Shown: piece by piece, positions 5,454 through 20,557 of the stretch
Numbering within the stretch: position 1 is the first letter of the stretch
Layout of the letters: every line of letters begins with the position of its first letter
NCBI GenBank assembly: GCA_964441035.1
Contig: CAYYKF010000001.1
Span: 1 to 43,792, forward strand
Source: an uncultured Candidatus Poseidoniales archaeon
GTDB taxonomy: Archaea > Thermoplasmatota > Poseidoniia > Poseidoniales > Thalassarchaeaceae
Length of the DNA: 43,792 nt
Direction of reading: 5' to 3'
Made by a program: the position numbers and the translations under genes
The notes under the pieces: model-generated
The model's database searches: none
Told to the model about the DNA's origin: nothing
The model's input: the letters and a program-made list of their open reading frames with translations, nothing else

Positions 5454-7322
5454 ATGACTCGACAGGATGGACCCTTTGGGGTCCAGCCCGAGCAGCGTGG
5501 ACATGAAATCCTCGCACCGCTCAGGCTGGCCGGTATGGAGGGACGAATCAAAGGCGTTCTTGATGAGAGGATGATCCTTTTTGAGCGAAGAGATGGAAAG
5601 GGACTTCGAATCGAACTCAATTCAATCCAGCGAGTTCGACATCACCATGTTCCAATTACACCCCCAGGAATCACTTGGTTGGGAGTCATTACAATTATTC
5701 TAGCAGCGCGTGTCCTCTCTGGTACGATTCAACTCTATGCTCTAGCTGTTGGGGCAATTACAATTTTCACATGGCTGATTGGTCGAAAGCCAGCATTGTG
5801 CATTGATACCAAGGCTGGAGACCGCCATATCTTACATGGTCGAGATAGCCTACTATTGCGTACACAGATGATGGTCAATCGTTTGTGTGATGGAAAGTCA
5901 ATTGAAGAAGCAAGGGAAGGCCTAGAGGAGTTACATCGACATTCAAATTATCCCATGATTCAACCACTTGAAGTTGTGCAGATGGGAACAACAACGATTG
6001 GAGGTCAAATCATCGAGGAAGCGGAACTTGTTCCTGAACCAGATGTATTCGATGAAGCCGATCTTGAACGTGCACTTGCAAACATGTACAACGGTCGAGA
6101 AGACAAGATACCTGAGCCACAACCTGCGAACGTTGTTACTGCAAGTCAAGCCACCGAATCTTTTGGATCAGATAGTCCGGCTGATCATGCTGGTCGAGGC
6201 CTATTAGACCGCGCGCGAGAATCACTCAATGAAACCAGAGAGAGTAATGAATGGTTCACTCCTTCACAAGAACCTACTCCAACACCACAAACAAATCCTT
6301 GGGAAAGGCCATGGGAACAAAAGAATGAGGTTGCAAGTAGTAATGCTGCAGAATCAGCATATCTTCGCGCATGGGGTAGGAATGAACCAGATTGGTATGA
6401 AGAAAGAGACACAGGTACCCGTATTCAATCTGCATTGAGTGAAGCAAAGGATGTAGGAGGATTATTCTCAGGTTCAATGTTTGATGAAACGGCTCCTTCT
6501 CAAACGACTGAAACTGGCATCTTTGGGAATTTGTTCGATGATGCTCCAATTTCAGAACCACAAACATACTCGCCCCTGCCAGAACCTGCACCCTTGCAGG
6601 AACCCGTTCCAACATGGTCGGGACAAGCCATTCATGATGCAAATGCAAGCACCTCTCTGGCAACAACTCTTCCGGAACCAACTGTTCATGCTCTACGTGA
6701 AGAATGCACACCTGGTCTGGTTGCTGCAGCACGAATGAGTCAATATGGAAGCGAAGAGAATGAAACACAATCTGCACCTCGTCGAGTGGAACAACAGATA
6801 TTGGCAGCATTTCCCGCATTGAGTGCGATGCTGAAATCAACACCTCCCGCGCGTCTTCAAAGCAACGCTGTTCAAAAGGAAGGGCGACTGGCTAGATTGG
6901 CCAAGCGTAGTATGGGAATGCTGAAATCAATGGAAGCAAAGAGGAATGCAGCAAACGCTAGACGTCCTGTTCAAATCAAAGGGGATGATTATGCCTCCAC
7001 ATATGGAGATAGTGACGGGTTTGCAGATGGAGAATATCGAGAAGTACCCTTGCGAAGTGGACAGATTCTACGCCTGAGAGCAGATCAAGACCATCAGGCT
7101 GAAATTGCAGATCGCATCATTTCGCTGTCTCAATCAACCGGTGGTGAATTTGCCGAAGATGAGGCAGGTGAACTTATTCAAAGATTGTCGGCGAGTGGAG
7201 ACCTTGAACCAATTGCAAATCTTCTCAAAGCGGCAGATAATAATCTGTCATTTTCCAATCTAGCTAGCACATCCCCTCCAAAGGAAGTACCTGGGCACCA
7301 TGGAATCTCGAGATTAGGCTGA
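5454..7322 (+). CDS. Hypothetical membrane-anchored protein with a long acidic/Pro-rich low-complexity region
   Basis: 622-aa ORF. It has two adjacent hydrophobic helices (ITWLGVITIILAARVLSG, LYALAVGAITIFTWLIG) flanked by short beta-like segments. About 350 aa of E/D/P/S/T-rich sequence follows, then a more ordered C-terminus. I recognised no family signature. Confidence 0.55.
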   Translation: MTRQDGPFGVQPEQRGHEILAPLRLAGMEGRIKGVLDERMILFERRDGKGLRIELNSIQRVRHHHVPITPPGITWLGVITIILAARVLSGTIQLYALAVGAITIFTWLIGRKPALCIDTKAGDRHILHGRDSLLLRTQMMVNRLCDGKSIEEAREGLEELHRHSNYPMIQPLEVVQMGTTTIGGQIIEEAELVPEPDVFDEADLERALANMYNGREDKIPEPQPANVVTASQATESFGSDSPADHAGRGLLDRARESLNETRESNEWFTPSQEPTPTPQTNPWERPWEQKNEVASSNAAESAYLRAWGRNEPDWYEERDTGTRIQSALSEAKDVGGLFSGSMFDETAPSQTTETGIFGNLFDDAPISEPQTYSPLPEPAPLQEPVPTWSGQAIHDANASTSLATTLPEPTVHALREECTPGLVAAARMSQYGSEENETQSAPRRVEQQILAAFPALSAMLKSTPPARLQSNAVQKEGRLARLAKRSMGMLKSMEAKRNAANARRPVQIKGDDYASTYGDSDGFADGEYREVPLRSGQILRLRADQDHQAEIADRIISLSQSTGGEFAEDEAGELIQRLSASGDLEPIANLLKAADNNLSFSNLASTSPPKEVPGHHGISRLG

Positions 7323-12313: not shown

Positions 12314-12389
12314 AATGATATAATTTTGTTGATTATTTTAACTCCATTTTGAGATAAAATAGATTCAGAATCTCACAATATCTCATTCC

Positions 12390-12405
12390 TTCAATTGGAA
12401 ATTGG
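12390..12405 (+). promoter_or_regulatory. ORB-like element TTCAATTGGAAATTGG
   Basis: It resembles the archaeal mini-ORB core (TTCCAnTGGAAA-like dyad). The 12-mer ATTGGAAATTGG recurs at 11933-11944 inside the MBL gene. Confidence 0.4.
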
Positions 12406-12703
12406 TGATAATTGCAAAATATTGAATATCTGGTTTTGAGGATCTTGAATACTGAGAAAATCACATAATCGTGATTTCTGTTTTTGTTAACCCTCAAGAA
12501 AAATTGAAACATATTTCAAATAACAAATTTGTACTCAAACCGGGGCGCTGGAAGTAATTCATGTGGATTTTCGACGTTTGACTATAAACCAATTTGTAAC
12601 TTCAATAACGATTGAATCGACATTCTTTACAGGACGACATGGACATCCTTATCTATTCGACTTGAACTGGCTCGGAATCCCTATGCTCGTTTGATACCCC
12701 TGA

Positions 12704-12718
12704 GATTTCAATTGACGG
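12704..12718 (-). promoter_or_regulatory. ORB-like element, inverted copy (reverse complement CCGTCAATTGAAATC)
   Basis: The reverse complement TCAATTG-AAAT matches TCAATTGGAAAT of the 12390 element apart from one missing G. The two copies face each other across ~300 bp of AT-rich DNA. Confidence 0.35.
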
Positions 12719-12744
12719 TGTTGAGTTGGGATATGTCGCGGATG

Positions 12745-12752
12745 TTATAAAA
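12745..12752 (+). promoter_or_regulatory. TATA-box-like TTATAAAA, candidate orc1/cdc6 promoter
   Basis: TTATAAAA is centred ~28 nt upstream of the second in-frame ATG (12776). This suggests a leaderless transcript starting there rather than at 12752. Confidence 0.4.
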
Positions 12753-13993
12753 TGGAAGGAAATCTTTTCGAAGATATGTTGCATGTCCGTAGTTTGTTTC
12801 GCGATAGGCGGGCACTTAGTCATGCGTTCACACCACTAAGTTTGCCGCACCGTGATAATGAAATTAAGACACTTGTTCACAACTTTGTTGAAGCTCTGCA
12901 TGGTCATGCCCCCTCAAATATGAATCTCTACGGTGTACCTGGTTCAGGGAAGACCGCAGTAACTCGTCTAGTCTGTCAGCAACTGAAAGAGAAAGGTGGA
13001 GAGATTGGGCGGGCGATTCATACGACTGAAATTAACTGCCGAAATGTGGACACAAAATATCGGGTTCTTGCAGAGATTGGGAATGCAATCCGTGGGGATG
13101 ATGATGAATTAATCCCATTCACAGGTTGGCCTGCTGACAAAGTCTTCGATCGCGTGCGCGCGCGCATGGACGCGCGCGCAGGCGTACACCTGATTGTACT
13201 CGATGAGATTGATCATTTGGTGCGTAAGGTTGGGGACGATCTGCTCTACAGTTTGACAAGTCTAAACATTGGCTTGTTAGAGAACTCATTCTGCTGCATT
13301 GTTGGAATCAGTAACGATTTGGCATTCACCGAGATACTTGATCCTAGAGTTGAATCGAGATTGGCACCAATTGACGTGACATTTGCACCCTACAATGCGT
13401 CTCAATTAGAAGATATATTGCTAAATCGGGCAAAAACTGGCATCAAAGAAAATGGTCTGGATGAAGGGGTAATTTCACTCTGCGCGGCTCTTGCAGCCAA
13501 GGAGCACGGTGACGCAAGACGTGCACTTGATTTCCTACGTATCTCGGTGCTTAAGGCGGAACAAGATGGGTGCGACAGGGTTACAGTTAATCATGTCAGG
13601 CAAGCTCAGAATCAACTGGAGTTTGATCAAATCACTCCTGCTGTGGCCAATCTCCCACTGCAACAGAAGATTGTACTATTCTCTATTCTAATCAATGAAC
13701 GAAATGGATTACGGAATATTACGACAGGGGAGTTGTACAATACATATGAGTTGGCTTGTAATAATGCTGCAGAGAAAACACTGACATCAAGGCGTGTTTC
13801 ATCACTTATTTCTGATTTAGACATGATGGGATTAATTTCAGCGAAAACAATCAGTCGAGGGCGGCAGGGGCGTTCAAAACGAATCAATAGTCGTCTTCCC
13901 CCTAATTTTGATGCAATCCAGGTGATGCAAGATTCTGATGCCGTGATGAGCGATGTAATCGATGCCAGATACCGCCTTCAAAAGAGGTTGTAA
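12752..13993 (+). CDS. cdc6: Orc1/Cdc6 replication initiator (AAA+ plus C-terminal winged helix)
   Basis: LPHRDNEI N-terminal motif, Walker A GVPGSGKTA, Walker B LIVLDEIDHL, and sensor region GDARRALDFLR. The length of 405-413 aa fits. The start may be the ATG at 12776. Confidence 0.95.
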   Translation: MEGNLFEDMLHVRSLFRDRRALSHAFTPLSLPHRDNEIKTLVHNFVEALHGHAPSNMNLYGVPGSGKTAVTRLVCQQLKEKGGEIGRAIHTTEINCRNVDTKYRVLAEIGNAIRGDDDELIPFTGWPADKVFDRVRARMDARAGVHLIVLDEIDHLVRKVGDDLLYSLTSLNIGLLENSFCCIVGISNDLAFTEILDPRVESRLAPIDVTFAPYNASQLEDILLNRAKTGIKENGLDEGVISLCAALAAKEHGDARRALDFLRISVLKAEQDGCDRVTVNHVRQAQNQLEFDQITPAVANLPLQQKIVLFSILINERNGLRNITTGELYNTYELACNNAAEKTLTSRRVSSLISDLDMMGLISAKTISRGRQGRSKRINSRLPPNFDAIQVMQDSDAVMSDVIDARYRLQKRL

Positions 13994-16638: not shown

Positions 16639-16649
16639 GACCTTGCCTC

Positions 16650-16985
16650 GTATCTACCGGGCACGGCGCAGTCCTTCAATCCGGCGGGAGGAAATCGATG
16701 TGTCCCGGGGCGTAACGGACCGTCTCATTGCCTTGGCTCGTGATCCTGACCCAGCCCCGGGACATCTGTCGGACCGGGGGGTTGTCCCATCAATCATCCC
16801 TTAGTCATGTGGGGACCCATACCCAGTTCGTTACCCCACCTCTTGCACCAGCGCTCATTCCCCGAGGGGTCCCGCCGGTCTTCGATAGGTGGGCTGCCCG
16901 GCATTGGTGCCGCATGCTCATCGCCCAACCCGGCGAGGGAGGGCTCACAGCGGTGTTGCAGCCGGGTGTAATGAACGGCGAGATA
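16650..16985. ncRNA. GC-rich intergenic element, candidate structured RNA (~300-335 nt; family and strand unresolved; SRP RNA and RNase P RNA are the size-appropriate candidates)
   Basis: I counted 193 G+C in 16681-16980 (64%), against about 45-50% in the flanking genes. Complementary segments: TGTCCCGGGGC (16701-11) with GCCCCGGGACA (16754-64); CCGGCGGG (16681-88) with CCCGCCGG (16871-78); CGGCA ttgg TGCCG (16899-16912); GTGGGG (16809-14) with CCCCAC (16834-39); GGCTGC (16892-97) with GCAGCC (16958-63). The only ORF here (16728-17018) has a non-protein-like sequence. Confidence 0.4.
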
Positions 16986-17014
16986 CTATGTTTTGAATGC
17001 TACGAATTGAATTA

Positions 17015-19684
17015 TTAGACATCAAGTGGATTTCGTGACAGTTCTACGTGCCACCCAGATGCCTTCTTTGCGAGGCGCGAAGAAATACGTGAATCGCCGT
17101 CTGTAATGCATGTTGAGTCCTCTGGCGGCCATAAATGAGATGGAACTGCAAGCCACCCAACTCGAGAGTGTGTACGACCAGGTGATGGTTTAGACAATGT
17201 ACGTACTGTTTGCAAGGCATCTCTCAAATCCGCAATCATCTTTGCCCCATCTCCAACGTTTTCACTTTCAAACCAATTGCTCCTTTCTAACAGTCGTTCC
17301 AAACGTGATAACAACGTTCTTCGAACACCTCCATGTTGAGAAATTGTACCACCTGGCAATCTATGATTCTCTTCAATAGGGCGGAGAATTAGTGCAGGCC
17401 AAGCAACGTCCACACTTTCCAAGAAAGCATGAGATTCAATATCATCTGAAAGTACTGTTAGAAGTGTTTCAGCAACAGGGGCCCACCATTCTTCAGGTAG
17501 ACGTTCAACAATCAGGCGCATGATTGTGGAATTAGGTCGTGTATCCAAATTTAACCAATCATCGAGTTGTGCCCACAGATGCAAGTCATGATTGAGTGGT
17601 AAAGAGAATGCTATGCTTCTAGCACGAACTCTCCAATCATCCGGTTCAGATTGTAGATTCTCAGGGACATGTTGTGCAAGCCAATCAATACCAGTTATTG
17701 CTGTTTGGCATCTGTTTGGAGGATGATCGAAAAATCGATCAATGCCCCATTTAGAAATATCATCTTGTTGGGATGCTGTTAACCACGCAGACTCTGCAAA
17801 CAATATACTCGCAATCCATGATGCTTCAGCGCTAGAGGCGGTTTCTCCGGATTGCCGAAGATGATGAGCAACGTTTGAATCCAGTCGAATTCTATTCCTT
17901 ATTGACTCTGAAACCTTATCACTCCATTCCTGTGGAAACTCAATTGCTGCTGTTGCAATTGCAGATATGGGGATGTCAGTTGGTTTCATCAAATCAATCC
18001 ATTCAACCCCTAATTGCACTCCGATTCGTTGCCAACGGCTCCAACGACTATCCGGTGAAGAAGCAATCCACGCTACCAGTGGATGTTGGGCCTCCATGCG
18101 ATTTGCCCAATCCTCATTTCCTGTTGGATAACATAGTACTGCAAATCGTATCAATCTCTCAGTGGATTGATCCGTTGATAATTCTAGATTCGGTAATACT
18201 TCTGAATTACCAAGCATTTGTTTTGATTTTTCAACTTCAAGGGCTGTCGTTGGAATTTCCCAAATGATGTCCTCTGAAAATGTGGTAAAAGCGAGCGAAG
18301 AACCAAGATTTACTGGTATTTTCGCTTCATCGAGTAGAATCATTTGGGACCACATTGAGGGCAATACTGGGTGTGGTGTAAGACGAATATTTGATGGAAA
18401 TTCATCACAACTGGAAACAAGGAGTAGTCGAAAATTCGAAGGTATATTCTTAATCAATTTGTCTGTATTTGTCTTTGCTGATAAAGCCAAATTGAAAATG
18501 TGGTTCGGTTCAGAATTAGCAGCCCATGCAATAATTGTGGATTCTGCAAGGGCTGACAAAGAAGTTGTATCAATCATTTGTCCAGCACTGACACGATCTT
18601 TAGTCCATCTTTTGTCACCCCAATGCTGTCGAAAACGGCGCCATGTAGAATCATCGACCTTTCTTCGTAATTGAATATCATTTGGAGAAATCAAAGCATT
18701 TCGTAGTGACGTCAATCTTTGCATTCTATCAATTGGACGAAGTCGAGGGTGTGAAATTTCAATCCAATACTCAAGCAATTCCAGCGGTAACGGTCTAGAA
18801 CGTGCTGGAAGCAAAGATTGCGGGGCAATTGATATTGCTCCAGCTGCTGCTGCCGATAATAGCGATTCTTTGGATAAGCGGTCAAGGCCGATTCCAAGTA
18901 CCGTAGATGTAGGTCGAATCTCTGGCCCTGCTTGTGAAATTGAGCCTAAACGCCAATTTCCATCCAAGGGAACACCTACAGGTGGAAGTAGTTTTGAATC
19001 TTGGCTAGGCTGCCCAAACCAGGCACCGATTCCCAATTTTAATGGATGAGAATCAATCACTCTATATCGTTGCAAACCCCACACTGGAACTTTGGCCCCC
19101 CAAGCGCTAATGTGACTTGGATTCAAATCTTCAATGGGTGAAGATACTGATTGATACGTCTCTGCATCCAACCATCTTGGCCTTCGCTCACGAGGTTCTG
19201 CCCAAATCCAATCGTATGACTGAATTTCTTCGACAACACCGATCAAATCAGACTCAAGTGGACGATTAGGTAGTGCAATTGGACCATCTTCTGGACGTCG
19301 TATAAATGCAACAAGAATGTTCAGTCCTATGACTGAGACTATACGGCCGAGTGCATTTTCTGGAGGTTGGGAACTATCGAGTGATTTTAATCGAGCAATT
19401 TCGTCCCCTCGGAGTGTATCCCAACCCTTTGCAGTCAAGGCAAGTTGAGCACCACGTGATCCAGTCTCCCCATCTGAATTGACCAACTCTTGAGTTCGTA
19501 ATCTCTTCAATTCTGCCGAGGCGTGAGGCATTCTAAGACCGACTTCTTTCGCAATTTCAGTTACAGTAGCTCTACTCTCACTCAATCTATCCAAAATACG
19601 CCGCCGTACACCGCTTCTAATTCGCCTAACAGAAGGTTTCTGTGTTATATTTAGCTCGATTTTTGAATCAATTTCGTCAGTCAT
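17015..19684 (-). CDS. Large (889 aa) uncharacterised protein with an N-terminal winged helix-turn-helix
   Basis: Residues ~25-95 read RRRILDRLSESRATVTEIAKEVGLRMPHASAELKRLRTQELVNSDGETGSRGAQLALTAKG, an ArsR/MarR-type wHTH pattern. The remaining ~790 aa are Trp/Leu/Ser-rich with no Walker, nuclease or TM motif that I can see. Confidence 0.6.
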   Translation of the reverse strand: MTDEIDSKIELNITQKPSVRRIRSGVRRRILDRLSESRATVTEIAKEVGLRMPHASAELKRLRTQELVNSDGETGSRGAQLALTAKGWDTLRGDEIARLKSLDSSQPPENALGRIVSVIGLNILVAFIRRPEDGPIALPNRPLESDLIGVVEEIQSYDWIWAEPRERRPRWLDAETYQSVSSPIEDLNPSHISAWGAKVPVWGLQRYRVIDSHPLKLGIGAWFGQPSQDSKLLPPVGVPLDGNWRLGSISQAGPEIRPTSTVLGIGLDRLSKESLLSAAAAGAISIAPQSLLPARSRPLPLELLEYWIEISHPRLRPIDRMQRLTSLRNALISPNDIQLRRKVDDSTWRRFRQHWGDKRWTKDRVSAGQMIDTTSLSALAESTIIAWAANSEPNHIFNLALSAKTNTDKLIKNIPSNFRLLLVSSCDEFPSNIRLTPHPVLPSMWSQMILLDEAKIPVNLGSSLAFTTFSEDIIWEIPTTALEVEKSKQMLGNSEVLPNLELSTDQSTERLIRFAVLCYPTGNEDWANRMEAQHPLVAWIASSPDSRWSRWQRIGVQLGVEWIDLMKPTDIPISAIATAAIEFPQEWSDKVSESIRNRIRLDSNVAHHLRQSGETASSAEASWIASILFAESAWLTASQQDDISKWGIDRFFDHPPNRCQTAITGIDWLAQHVPENLQSEPDDWRVRARSIAFSLPLNHDLHLWAQLDDWLNLDTRPNSTIMRLIVERLPEEWWAPVAETLLTVLSDDIESHAFLESVDVAWPALILRPIEENHRLPGGTISQHGGVRRTLLSRLERLLERSNWFESENVGDGAKMIADLRDALQTVRTLSKPSPGRTHSRVGWLAVPSHLWPPEDSTCITDGDSRISSRLAKKASGWHVELSRNPLDV

Positions 19685-19709
19685 ATTGGCCCCATCTAAG
19701 AACGTTCAT
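19677..19709 (-). CDS. 10-codon upstream ORF (MNVLRWGQYD) overlapping the start of the 889-aa gene
   Basis: Minus strand reads GGAGGTGA (19726-19719), a 9-nt spacer, then ATG AAC GTT CTT AGA TGG GGC CAA TAT GAC TGA. The TGA ends 5 nt inside the main ORF, whose own ATG (19684) has no SD. Confidence 0.3.
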   Translation of the reverse strand: MNVLRWGQYD

Positions 19710-19714
19710 GAACG
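19703..19714. promoter_or_regulatory. Perfect 12-bp palindrome CGTTCATGAACG centred on the uORF start codon
   Basis: Read directly from the sequence. It lies in the divergent control region between two wHTH genes, so it is a candidate operator. Confidence 0.35.
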
Positions 19715-19987
19715 GTCCTCACCTCCCCCCATGCATCTTTTGTACTTCAATTATTCTAATTGTTACGTGAAGTTATGTATTTCCACTGGAATTAAGGCCG
19801 GTGTGGAAAAGAAAGTCAGAATTTACCGACATAGAGTTGATTTTCTCGTATCACTACGTAACGAATTAGATTTGGTCGCCCCAACGGTTATATCAACGAC
19901 AGCAATCGCTCGGGTCAGACGGCATGGAAGCGCCCGCGGGAGATATGGTGTCGTCGATGGAAACTGGACAAAATAGGAGGAAAAAAT

Positions 19988-20284
19988 ATGAAAACCGTAA
20001 GAATTCGAGAGAAGATCAAGTCATTCTTGGCAGAGCGCCCGCGCAATACTGCTGAGATTCTAGAACACATTAACAGCACTATGCGACATGGGACAACCAG
20101 CCAGCAGTTGGGTAATGTCCTAAGTAAAGACAAAGATATTGTCAAGGTCGGTTACATCAAGCGTAGTGGCATCCTATCTGGTGGATATGACATCTGCGAA
20201 TGGGCAACCCGCATTTGGGTCGCTGACAATTATCCTGAATGGGATGGACAAGGTCCAATTCTCATGGACAAAAATAAGCGCTAA
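19988..20284 (+). CDS. Small (98 aa) winged-helix-like DNA-binding protein
   Basis: Strong SD (AGGAGG, then a 7-nt spacer, then ATG). RIREKIKSFLAERPRNTAEILEHINSTMRHGTTSQQLGNVLSKDKDIVKVG has an H1-H2-H3-wing pattern. An intrinsic-type terminator follows. Confidence 0.6.
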   Translation: MKTVRIREKIKSFLAERPRNTAEILEHINSTMRHGTTSQQLGNVLSKDKDIVKVGYIKRSGILSGGYDICEWATRIWVADNYPEWDGQGPILMDKNKR

Positions 20285-20347: not shown

Positions 20348-20557
20348 TCACCAAACGAATGGACTTAACACAAGAAATGCCCCCATCAATGTTCCACCAA
20401 TGATGTTCATCAGGAATATCTTGGGATATTCCTCTCTTGACCCCCAAGAAAATATCTTGCGGATCCAAACTTTCTGATTAAGCATACAATATGCAGCATA
20501 CATCAGTACTAACGCGCCAACTGCAATGCGGATGGAATCAAGTGTTGTGACATCCAT
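20348..20557 (-). CDS. Small (69 aa) two-helix membrane protein
   Basis: It starts 3 nt after the aldolase stop on the same strand. Two hydrophobic helices are present (IRIAVGALVLMYAAYCML and IFLMNIIGGTLMGAFLVLSPFVW). Confidence 0.45.
   Translation of the reverse strand: MDVTTLDSIRIAVGALVLMYAAYCMLNQKVWIRKIFSWGSREEYPKIFLMNIIGGTLMGAFLVLSPFVW

Follow-up and report, generated by a model that had tools for sequence, protein, structure and literature searches.

The window analysed here is the whole stretch of 43,792 nucleotides (nt) from an uncultured Candidatus Poseidoniales archaeon (GenBank assembly GCA_964441035.1, contig CAYYKF010000001.1, positions 1 to 43,792 of the forward strand). On its minus strand, a coding sequence at 17015..19684, with the stop codon at 17015-17017, encodes a protein of 889 amino acids (aa), called the large protein below, which begins with a winged helix-turn-helix (wHTH) domain and continues for about 790 aa. 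Its gene is divergent from a 98-aa gene of the DUF3860 family, and the spacer between the two carries a conserved palindromic box; a structured RNA lies directly downstream, and the gene orc1/cdc6 belongs to the same conserved block. The open reading frame (ORF) is present just as the first-pass annotation of this DNA had described it. On the whole, our analysis shows the large gene to be a universal single-copy signature gene of its order within the sampled genomes, and we tentatively propose that its product is a scaffold or regulator anchored to DNA.

We present first the distribution of the gene in the order Poseidoniales (Marine Group II), whose two families are labelled f1 and f3 here. 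A word-indexed search returns 70 homologous clusters with 30-78% identity and lengths of about 870-920 aa, one 579-aa fragment apart; where a cluster has a name, which is rare, it is 'winged helix-turn-helix domain-containing protein, Thermoplasmatota archaeon'. An exhaustive search of 1.84 billion protein representatives gives only 211 homologues, many of them fragments. The window's own assembly has one copy of the gene, and 38 of 41 relatives have it as well, including all 17 high-quality genomes. In a phylum-wide sample of 301 genomes, full-length matches are detected throughout families f1 and f3 (63 of 63 genomes) and in none of the eight genomes of the sister family in the same class, and in the rest of the phylum the matches are confined to the wHTH (profile positions about 20-110). 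This distribution marks the large protein as a signature of the order, and the earlier description of it as an orphan does not hold. The gene is vertically inherited in fixed synteny, and its GC content is that of the surrounding DNA.

The composition of the protein is peculiar. Tryptophan makes up 35 of its 889 residues (3.9%), against about 2.2% in the long ORFs of the window, which is a crude background, and the four Trp-rich strings pointed out earlier (WIWAEP, WRRFRQHWGDKRW, RWSRWQR and EEWWAP) are all in the translation. An alignment of 34 homologues has 80 invariant columns, 24 of which are Trp; the invariant residues of the large body are mostly W, P, G and R, and many Arg residues of the protein are invariant. 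For the approximately 790 aa beyond the wHTH, no match is obtained in Pfam, NCBIfam, PHROGs, PADLOC or PDB sequences, whether the search is run with the single sequence, with each of the 34 members or with the 34-member alignment and profile. The only PADLOC matches to the protein are weak ones to Csa3/CasR, confined to the generic wHTH (aa 3-87). A Walker A motif (GxxxxGK[ST]) is absent from the 889 aa, the large body has no conserved catalytic pattern, and no transmembrane segment is convincing, the most hydrophobic 19-mer (at aa 110) being modelled as a beta hairpin; the first-pass annotation had likewise listed no Walker, transmembrane or catalytic signatures. Known sensor folds (PAS, GAF, CBS, the periplasmic-binding type and others) are found neither by sequence nor by Foldseek.

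The N-terminal domain, which had been taken for an ArsR/MarR-type winged helix, is indeed of this type, and occupies aa about 20-101 (19382..19627, minus strand) with invariant columns from I22 to E95. The Pfam family HTH_5 matches aa 26-70 with 26.5 bits, above its gathering cut-off of 22, and is matched in all 34 family members; the NCBIfam metalloregulator model HTH_metalloreg (NF033788) scores 33.7 bits, under its cut-off of 55. Foldseek with the full-length model gives MarR/ArsR matches at probability 1.0. The elements of the fold in the AlphaFold2 model are helices at 25-34, 41-48 and 52-64, a beta wing at 68-83 and a last helix at 85-101, and the recognition helix, PHASAELKRLR, is nearly invariant. 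A common origin of this wHTH and the DUF3860 protein was also considered, and is rejected, the two being without sequence similarity.

The rest of the protein is approached through its predicted fold. The full-length AlphaFold2 model, made with the 34-sequence alignment, has a pLDDT of 85.0; aa 105-889, which were re-modelled because wHTH matches swamped the Foldseek list of the full-length model, reach 86.4. Following the wHTH, all on the minus strand, the model has a beta-rich, barrel-like domain of seven strands (aa about 105-260, 18905..19372), lying within the stretch that Foldseek aligns with HerA; HerA itself has a beta-barrel at its N-terminus. The next domain (aa about 261-470, 18275..18904) is alpha/beta with a four-helix insert and again has HerA as its top Foldseek match. 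Its predicted order, beta-alpha-beta-[helical insert]-beta-alpha-beta, resembles a RecA-like core without P-loop or Walker B. An all-alpha solenoid comes third (aa about 471-770, 17375..18274), modelled with the highest confidence, with a net charge of -22 and 17 Trp, and a small C-terminal alpha/beta domain (aa about 771-889, 17018..17374), having invariant D819, H839 and W844...W852-P853, closes the chain.

When the wHTH is removed, the six best confident Foldseek matches in the PDB are all HerA, from several different complexes. The best is HerA-NurA of T. kodakarensis (9x1m_A, E 2.7e-4, probability 1.00), other top matches are SIR2-HerA 8wiv_L, the trimeric HerA 8yhx_A and D. radiodurans 7f6d_A, and the HerA set as a whole ranges from E 2.7e-4 to 1e-2 with probabilities of 0.9-1.0. 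After HerA come FliI/F1-beta at low probability and then TPR/HEAT/ARM solenoids (AlgK, PP2A-A, importin-beta, APC subunits), and Foldseek against viral structures yields nothing significant. HerA, FliI and F1 share a layout of barrel, RecA-like and helical parts, and the strand-helix order of aa 262-460 in the AlphaFold2 model fits this layout. The first-pass annotation had called the 790 aa unrecognisable, which stands for the sequence searches; since the predicted fold resembles HerA/FtsK-type ring ATPases without their motifs, the region is not wholly unrecognisable. This likeness is weak and at the level of the fold only, and a confident match to a well-known housekeeping family, which would have told against a novel protein, was not obtained.

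The catalytic motifs of these ATPases are missing. None of the 34 diverse family members has a Walker A or B at the corresponding places, and none matches PF01935 (DUF87), whereas genuine HerA of the same phylum carries A/G-x-T/S-G-A/S-G-K-S/T. We also considered a relic P-loop: the string GLDRLSKE after the strand at 262-265 is P-loop-like in the window sequence, but it is not conserved in distant members, and this candidate is rejected. As a separate observation, canonical HerA (PF01935) is detected in 53 of 61 Thermoplasmatota genomes, whereas the four genomes searched from the window's family, among them the one that the window comes from, have none; in the other family, f3, there are only weak DUF87 matches, in ORFs of about 830-900 aa.

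The neighbourhood of the gene is as constant as the gene itself is widespread. A tblastn comparison of 22 loci gives, in both families, the order of a transmembrane protein (TM190), a GT2 glycosyltransferase, a fused PPAT/DPCK, a non-coding gap of 370-420 nt, the large gene and, divergently, the small gene. The conserved block reaches orc1/cdc6 (12752..13993, plus strand; Pfam Cdc6_C, Cdc6_lid and AAA), about 5.8 kb from the shared spacer, and a metallo-beta-lactamase-fold gene, with synteny in ten loci from both families. The two flanking elements that had been noticed beside the large gene are real, the 98-aa gene being a DUF3860 gene and the GC-rich element a structured RNA with strong covariation, and the pairing of the large gene with both, which was to be checked in related genomes, is strictly conserved.

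The divergent partner (19988..20284, plus strand) belongs to DUF3860 (Pfam PF12976, E 1.7e-33; PDB 2OD5, E 1.7e-51). Its protein is 82-98% identical between the two families, against only 24-59% for the large protein. DUF3860 is found in all 35 sampled genomes of the order and is rare outside it, and wherever the coordinates of both genes are listed, the top-scoring DUF3860 copy adjoins the large gene. In some genera DUF3860 stands in tandem, and a more distant paralogue of about 81 aa occurs elsewhere in the genome. Relatives of DUF3860 are also seen on three viral contigs of IMG/VR (L079, L080 and L081, at about 6001-6260 in each), one directly downstream of a class II ribonucleotide reductase and another near an HNH endonuclease. 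The large protein is not found on IMG/VR viral contigs, and GenBank phage records give no match for it or for DUF3860. On the far side of the DUF3860 gene, before a class I aldolase gene, lies a 69-aa hydrophobic ORF (20348-20557, minus strand). Of the loci compared by tblastn, that of the window's own genome alone matches it, and the ORF may either encode a small membrane protein or be no gene at all.

The spacer common to the divergent pair (19685..19987) has a GC content of 44.6%. Aligning 18 spacers from both families shows the blocks that are kept order-wide, namely an invariant ATATAACC, three GTTAC/GTAAC motifs and the palindrome TTCCAGTGGAAAT. The palindrome matches exactly in the window at 19779..19791 (minus strand), in conserved columns, about 100 nt upstream of the start of the large gene. 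It fits the dyad core of the origin recognition box (ORB), TCCA[CG]T[TG]GAAA[TC], and is identical to the archaeal ORB (mini-ORB) core. The archaeal ORB consensus is CTTCCAGTGGAAACGAAAGGGGT (PMC4153887; PMC4164010), and the ORB of Methanomassiliicoccales is GTTCCAGTGGAAATGG-AGGGGTA (PMC4153887). Our spacer has this box only once, with no paired inverted boxes and no AT-rich unwinding element, and looks like an initiator-type box inside a promoter region. The invariant GGTTATAT block at approximately 19885..19893 (plus strand), which lies in the invariant ATATAACC columns, is a probable TATA-type promoter element of the DUF3860 gene. Boxes of the form TTCAA(A/T)A / TTGAA(A/G) are seen in family f1 about 25-35 nt upstream of the structured RNA, of PPAT/DPCK and of the large gene (in the window at approximately 16655-16690, 16985-17005 and 19730-19745, minus strand), and may be a local form of the archaeal TATA element and B recognition element; in family f3, TTTATCAA is found in front of the large gene instead of a box of the TTCAA(A/T)A type.

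Within the window, the spacer upstream of orc1/cdc6 (12314..12751) is more likely to be the origin: judged by its composition (GC 33.6%) and by an ORB-like box TTCAATTGGAAAT at 12390, a two-mismatch ORB match, it is the better oriC candidate. The whole block from this spacer to the DUF3860 gene is syntenic in both families. An intragenic ORB box lies about 370-400 nt into the large gene in three loci of family f3; the window has no such box at the corresponding position, the only site being one with two mismatches at 17927-17939. Counted over the window, ORB-like sites number 4 against 1.8 expected, which is not significant. A different site deserves mention here. On contig C13 of genome G000 (19127-19196; about 2128-2197 of locus L078), two inverted ORB boxes stand 58 bp apart in an intergenic spacer, and one of them is a full ORB with the G-string (TTCCAGTGGAAATTGGGGT), nearer the archaeal consensus than the boxes next to orc1/cdc6 in the window. 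At this inverted pair, Orc1 may have a second binding site, or replication a second origin.

On the other side of the large gene, the GC-rich gap between it and PPAT/DPCK (16639-17014) houses a conserved RNA of about 270 nt (approximately 16699..16970, minus strand, the strand being taken from G-U pairs). It is kept in all 16 aligned loci, from both families, on the same strand as the large gene. RNAalifold folds it into four hairpins with 60 pairs, 41 of which have compensatory changes; 93.5% of the alignment cells are paired, none of 500 shuffles reaches the observed covariation, and slid controls collapse. In each hairpin, a conserved internal loop separates the lower from the upper stem, and the cap is a kink-turn-like GA/AUGA. 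Hairpins 3 and 4 are each followed by an ACA, 15 nt away from the loop, in agreement with the distance of about 14-16 nt from the pocket in archaeal H/ACA guides; for hairpins 1 and 2 no clear ACA is seen. Judged by these features, the RNA has an archaeal H/ACA guide architecture. Its invariant pocket bases can pair by the H/ACA rule with helix 69 of the large-subunit (LSU) ribosomal RNA (GUAAC-UA-UGACCC), and further LSU pairings are possible with the A-loop (GGUUGU-UC-GCCCAU) and with UUGC-UA-CUUCGAU; since guides with shuffled sequence attain as many pairs in 13-32 of 60 trials, these targets are only suggestive.

Rfam gives no relevant match to this RNA at the gathering score or at E <= 1. 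RNase P RNA is rejected as its identity, for that RNA is encoded elsewhere in the genomes of the order, the window's own included, and so is the signal recognition particle RNA, whose gene is elsewhere in the genomes of the order, with no match in the window's own assembly, which is 83% complete. A leader or riboswitch of PPAT/DPCK is judged unlikely from the conserved TTCAA(A/T)A box about 28 nt upstream of the RNA, which is promoter-like, and from a separate conserved TTGAAAGA box before the PPAT/DPCK start. We find no evidence that ties the RNA functionally to the large protein.

Based on the above, we propose that the large protein is a non-enzymatic, DNA-anchored scaffold or regulator which acts with DUF3860, possibly under Orc1/Cdc6 control, and we give this reading a probability of roughly 0.4. 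The nearly invariant wHTH would anchor the protein to DNA and provide recognition of a site, perhaps the mini-ORB; the motif-less HerA-like core may still oligomerise; and the acidic, Trp-rich solenoid would offer a docking surface for basic partner proteins. The protein would act together with the divergent and almost invariant DUF3860 protein, the gene pair sharing a control region that contains the conserved mini-ORB. With this box in the shared control region, the expression or the DNA target of the protein is probably linked to Orc1/Cdc6, whose gene and AT-rich spacer are about 6-7 kb away. A scaffold was among the roles suggested by the first-pass annotation, and it is retained here as a candidate. 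A bolder version is distinctly unlikely in our estimate, namely that the protein is an origin-associated factor specific to Poseidoniales, a pseudo-HerA that forms a ring and is tethered to ORB-like boxes through the wHTH, and that with DUF3860 would modulate Orc1/Cdc6-dependent initiation or the organisation of the origin region.

Several results weigh against the scaffold reading. The likeness to HerA is weak, with TM-scores of 0.26-0.33 and a root-mean-square deviation above 11 A (about 12 A), and the profile-profile comparison by hhalign between the family and 18 HerA sequences from Thermoplasmatota returns a probability of 0.1%; the likeness of the models may reflect only a generic arrangement of barrel, alpha/beta and helical parts. 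Because the similarity is weak, the Walker motifs are absent and hhalign is negative, we call the body HerA-like in architecture and motif-less, and not a member of the HerA family. The TTCCAGTGGAAAT box is without the G-string (GGGGT) of a full ORB, having ACATAAC and conserved GTAAC repeats after it, and it is for the lack of the G-string that we call it a mini-ORB. It also varies in some genera, e.g. TTTGCACTGGAAAT and TTTCCATAGGAAAT, and one of the two wHTH proteins might instead use the palindrome as its operator. At 44.6% GC, the shared spacer is not AT-rich and hence not origin-like in the window. As to DUF3860, the large protein is missing from the three viral contigs, whose DUF3860 relatives have 59-63% identity, and the partnership is therefore not an obligate one. 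Binding of the large protein to the spacer, to DUF3860 or to Orc1 is putative.

The operator just mentioned leads to the alternative that the large protein is an ordinary one-component transcription factor, whose wHTH dimer would sit on the palindrome of its own promoter and whose body of about 790 aa would sense a ligand or signal; the likeness to ORB would then be coincidental, and the proximity to the origin a matter of conserved gene order. The wHTH is of the ArsR/MarR repressor type, the palindrome is conserved order-wide at about 100 nt upstream of the gene's start, and genes that regulate themselves classically have this layout of a divergent pair around one common spacer. However, neither sequence nor Foldseek shows a known sensor fold, and the body is several times the usual size of an effector domain, in keeping with the earlier remark that so long a wHTH protein is not a standard transcription factor. 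The body also evolves fast, with 24-27% identity between families, while the wHTH and DUF3860 are nearly fixed, and a 13-nt box identical to the ORB core would be rare for a chance operator. We therefore regard this alternative as rather unlikely, though worth keeping in mind. The protein might instead be the partner of the downstream four-hairpin RNA in a lineage-specific ribonucleoprotein: in 16 of 16 aligned loci of both families the stop codon of the large gene is immediately followed by the RNA, encoded on the same strand; the RNA is a real structure, and the protein has many invariant Arg. But the RNA is of the H/ACA guide architecture, a class with other known partners (in archaea Cbf5, Nop10, Gar1 and L7Ae), its TTCAA(A/T)A box suggests a promoter of its own, the largest domain of the protein is strongly acidic, and the adjacency may reflect the frozen gene order of the whole block, all of which make such a complex very improbable.

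Two further alternatives start from the HerA likeness, and both appear to us extremely improbable. That the protein is a defence or conflict effector or sensor, akin to the SIR2-HerA or DUF4297-HerA anti-phage complexes, might be thought from the several Foldseek matches that are HerA subunits of such complexes (8wiv, 8wld, 8suw, 9c1n) and from the weak PADLOC matches to Csa3/CasR. The latter, however, cover only the generic wHTH, and the gene is universal, single-copy and syntenic across the order with the GC content of its surroundings. No effector gene such as SIR2 or a nuclease is adjacent, the neighbours being housekeeping genes; ATPase motifs are absent, and no homologue is on viral contigs. 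Given the vertical inheritance, the fixed synteny and the lack of any PADLOC match outside the wHTH, the conflict system that the first-pass annotation had entertained is not supported. An active but highly divergent HerA-type translocase, replacing the canonical HerA that is missing from the window's family, is favoured by the fold resemblance and by the occurrence of PF01935 in 53 of 61 genomes of the phylum and 0 of 4 of that family. Against it, no member has a conserved motif like Walker A, Walker B or an arginine finger, the hhalign probability is only 0.1%, and family f3 has the large protein and yet keeps other DUF87-type genes.

As for the significance, Marine Group II ranks with the most abundant groups of planktonic archaea, and to our knowledge it has no cultured member. 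All sampled genomes of the order have the large gene, those of the sister lineage do not, and it is locked beside a near-invariant small protein and an initiator-type box near orc1/cdc6. A gene of this kind is likely to serve chromosome biology or global regulation in a basic role that defines the lineage. Under the scaffold reading, the large protein would exemplify a ring-ATPase fold reused without the ATPase, and if it were a pseudo-HerA at the origin, a dead translocase would have been turned into a new layer of replication control particular to this archaeal lineage. So far the annotation of the family has held nothing beyond 'winged helix-turn-helix domain-containing protein'; with its domains mapped and the mini-ORB spacer as a DNA target that can be tested, experimenters now have a culture-free starting point.

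Finally, we compare the locus with known systems. The N-terminal approximately 80 aa superpose on ArsR/SmtB and MarR repressors (HTH_5 / HTH_20; CzrA 1r1u, NolR 4omz, ZitR 5yhx) and pass the HTH_5 gathering score, and a palindrome in the gene's own promoter region is a further likeness. Those regulators are homodimers of 100-150 aa, whereas the large protein adds about 790 residues; in difference to the ArsR metalloregulators, it scores under the NCBIfam cut-off and has no evident metal-site motif. The partner gene is a near-identical member of PF12976, represented by 2OD5, a structural-genomics structure of an ocean-metagenome protein, which is without a described function and without sequence similarity to the wHTH of the large protein. 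With archaeal oriC and its ORB-Orc1/Cdc6 system, the locus shares the ORB dyad core in TTCCAGTGGAAAT and its place in a conserved block to which orc1/cdc6 and an ORB-like spacer rich in AT also belong; it differs in the single box, the missing G-string and the spacer that is not AT-rich, and the Orc1 site is putative. Towards HerA (9x1m/9x1l; 7f6d; 8wiv/8wld), the likeness is in the predicted order of domains, a barrel, an alpha/beta core with a helical insert and then helices, while the large protein is without Walker A/B, without a DUF87 match and without a NurA-like partner, and the TM-scores are low, at 0.2-0.33. Its N-terminal wHTH and its acidic solenoid of about 300 aa are in turn features that HerA lacks. 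As far as the models indicate, and the likeness is weak, the closest known architecture to the large protein is that of a HerA/FtsK-type ring ATPase stripped of its catalytic apparatus.

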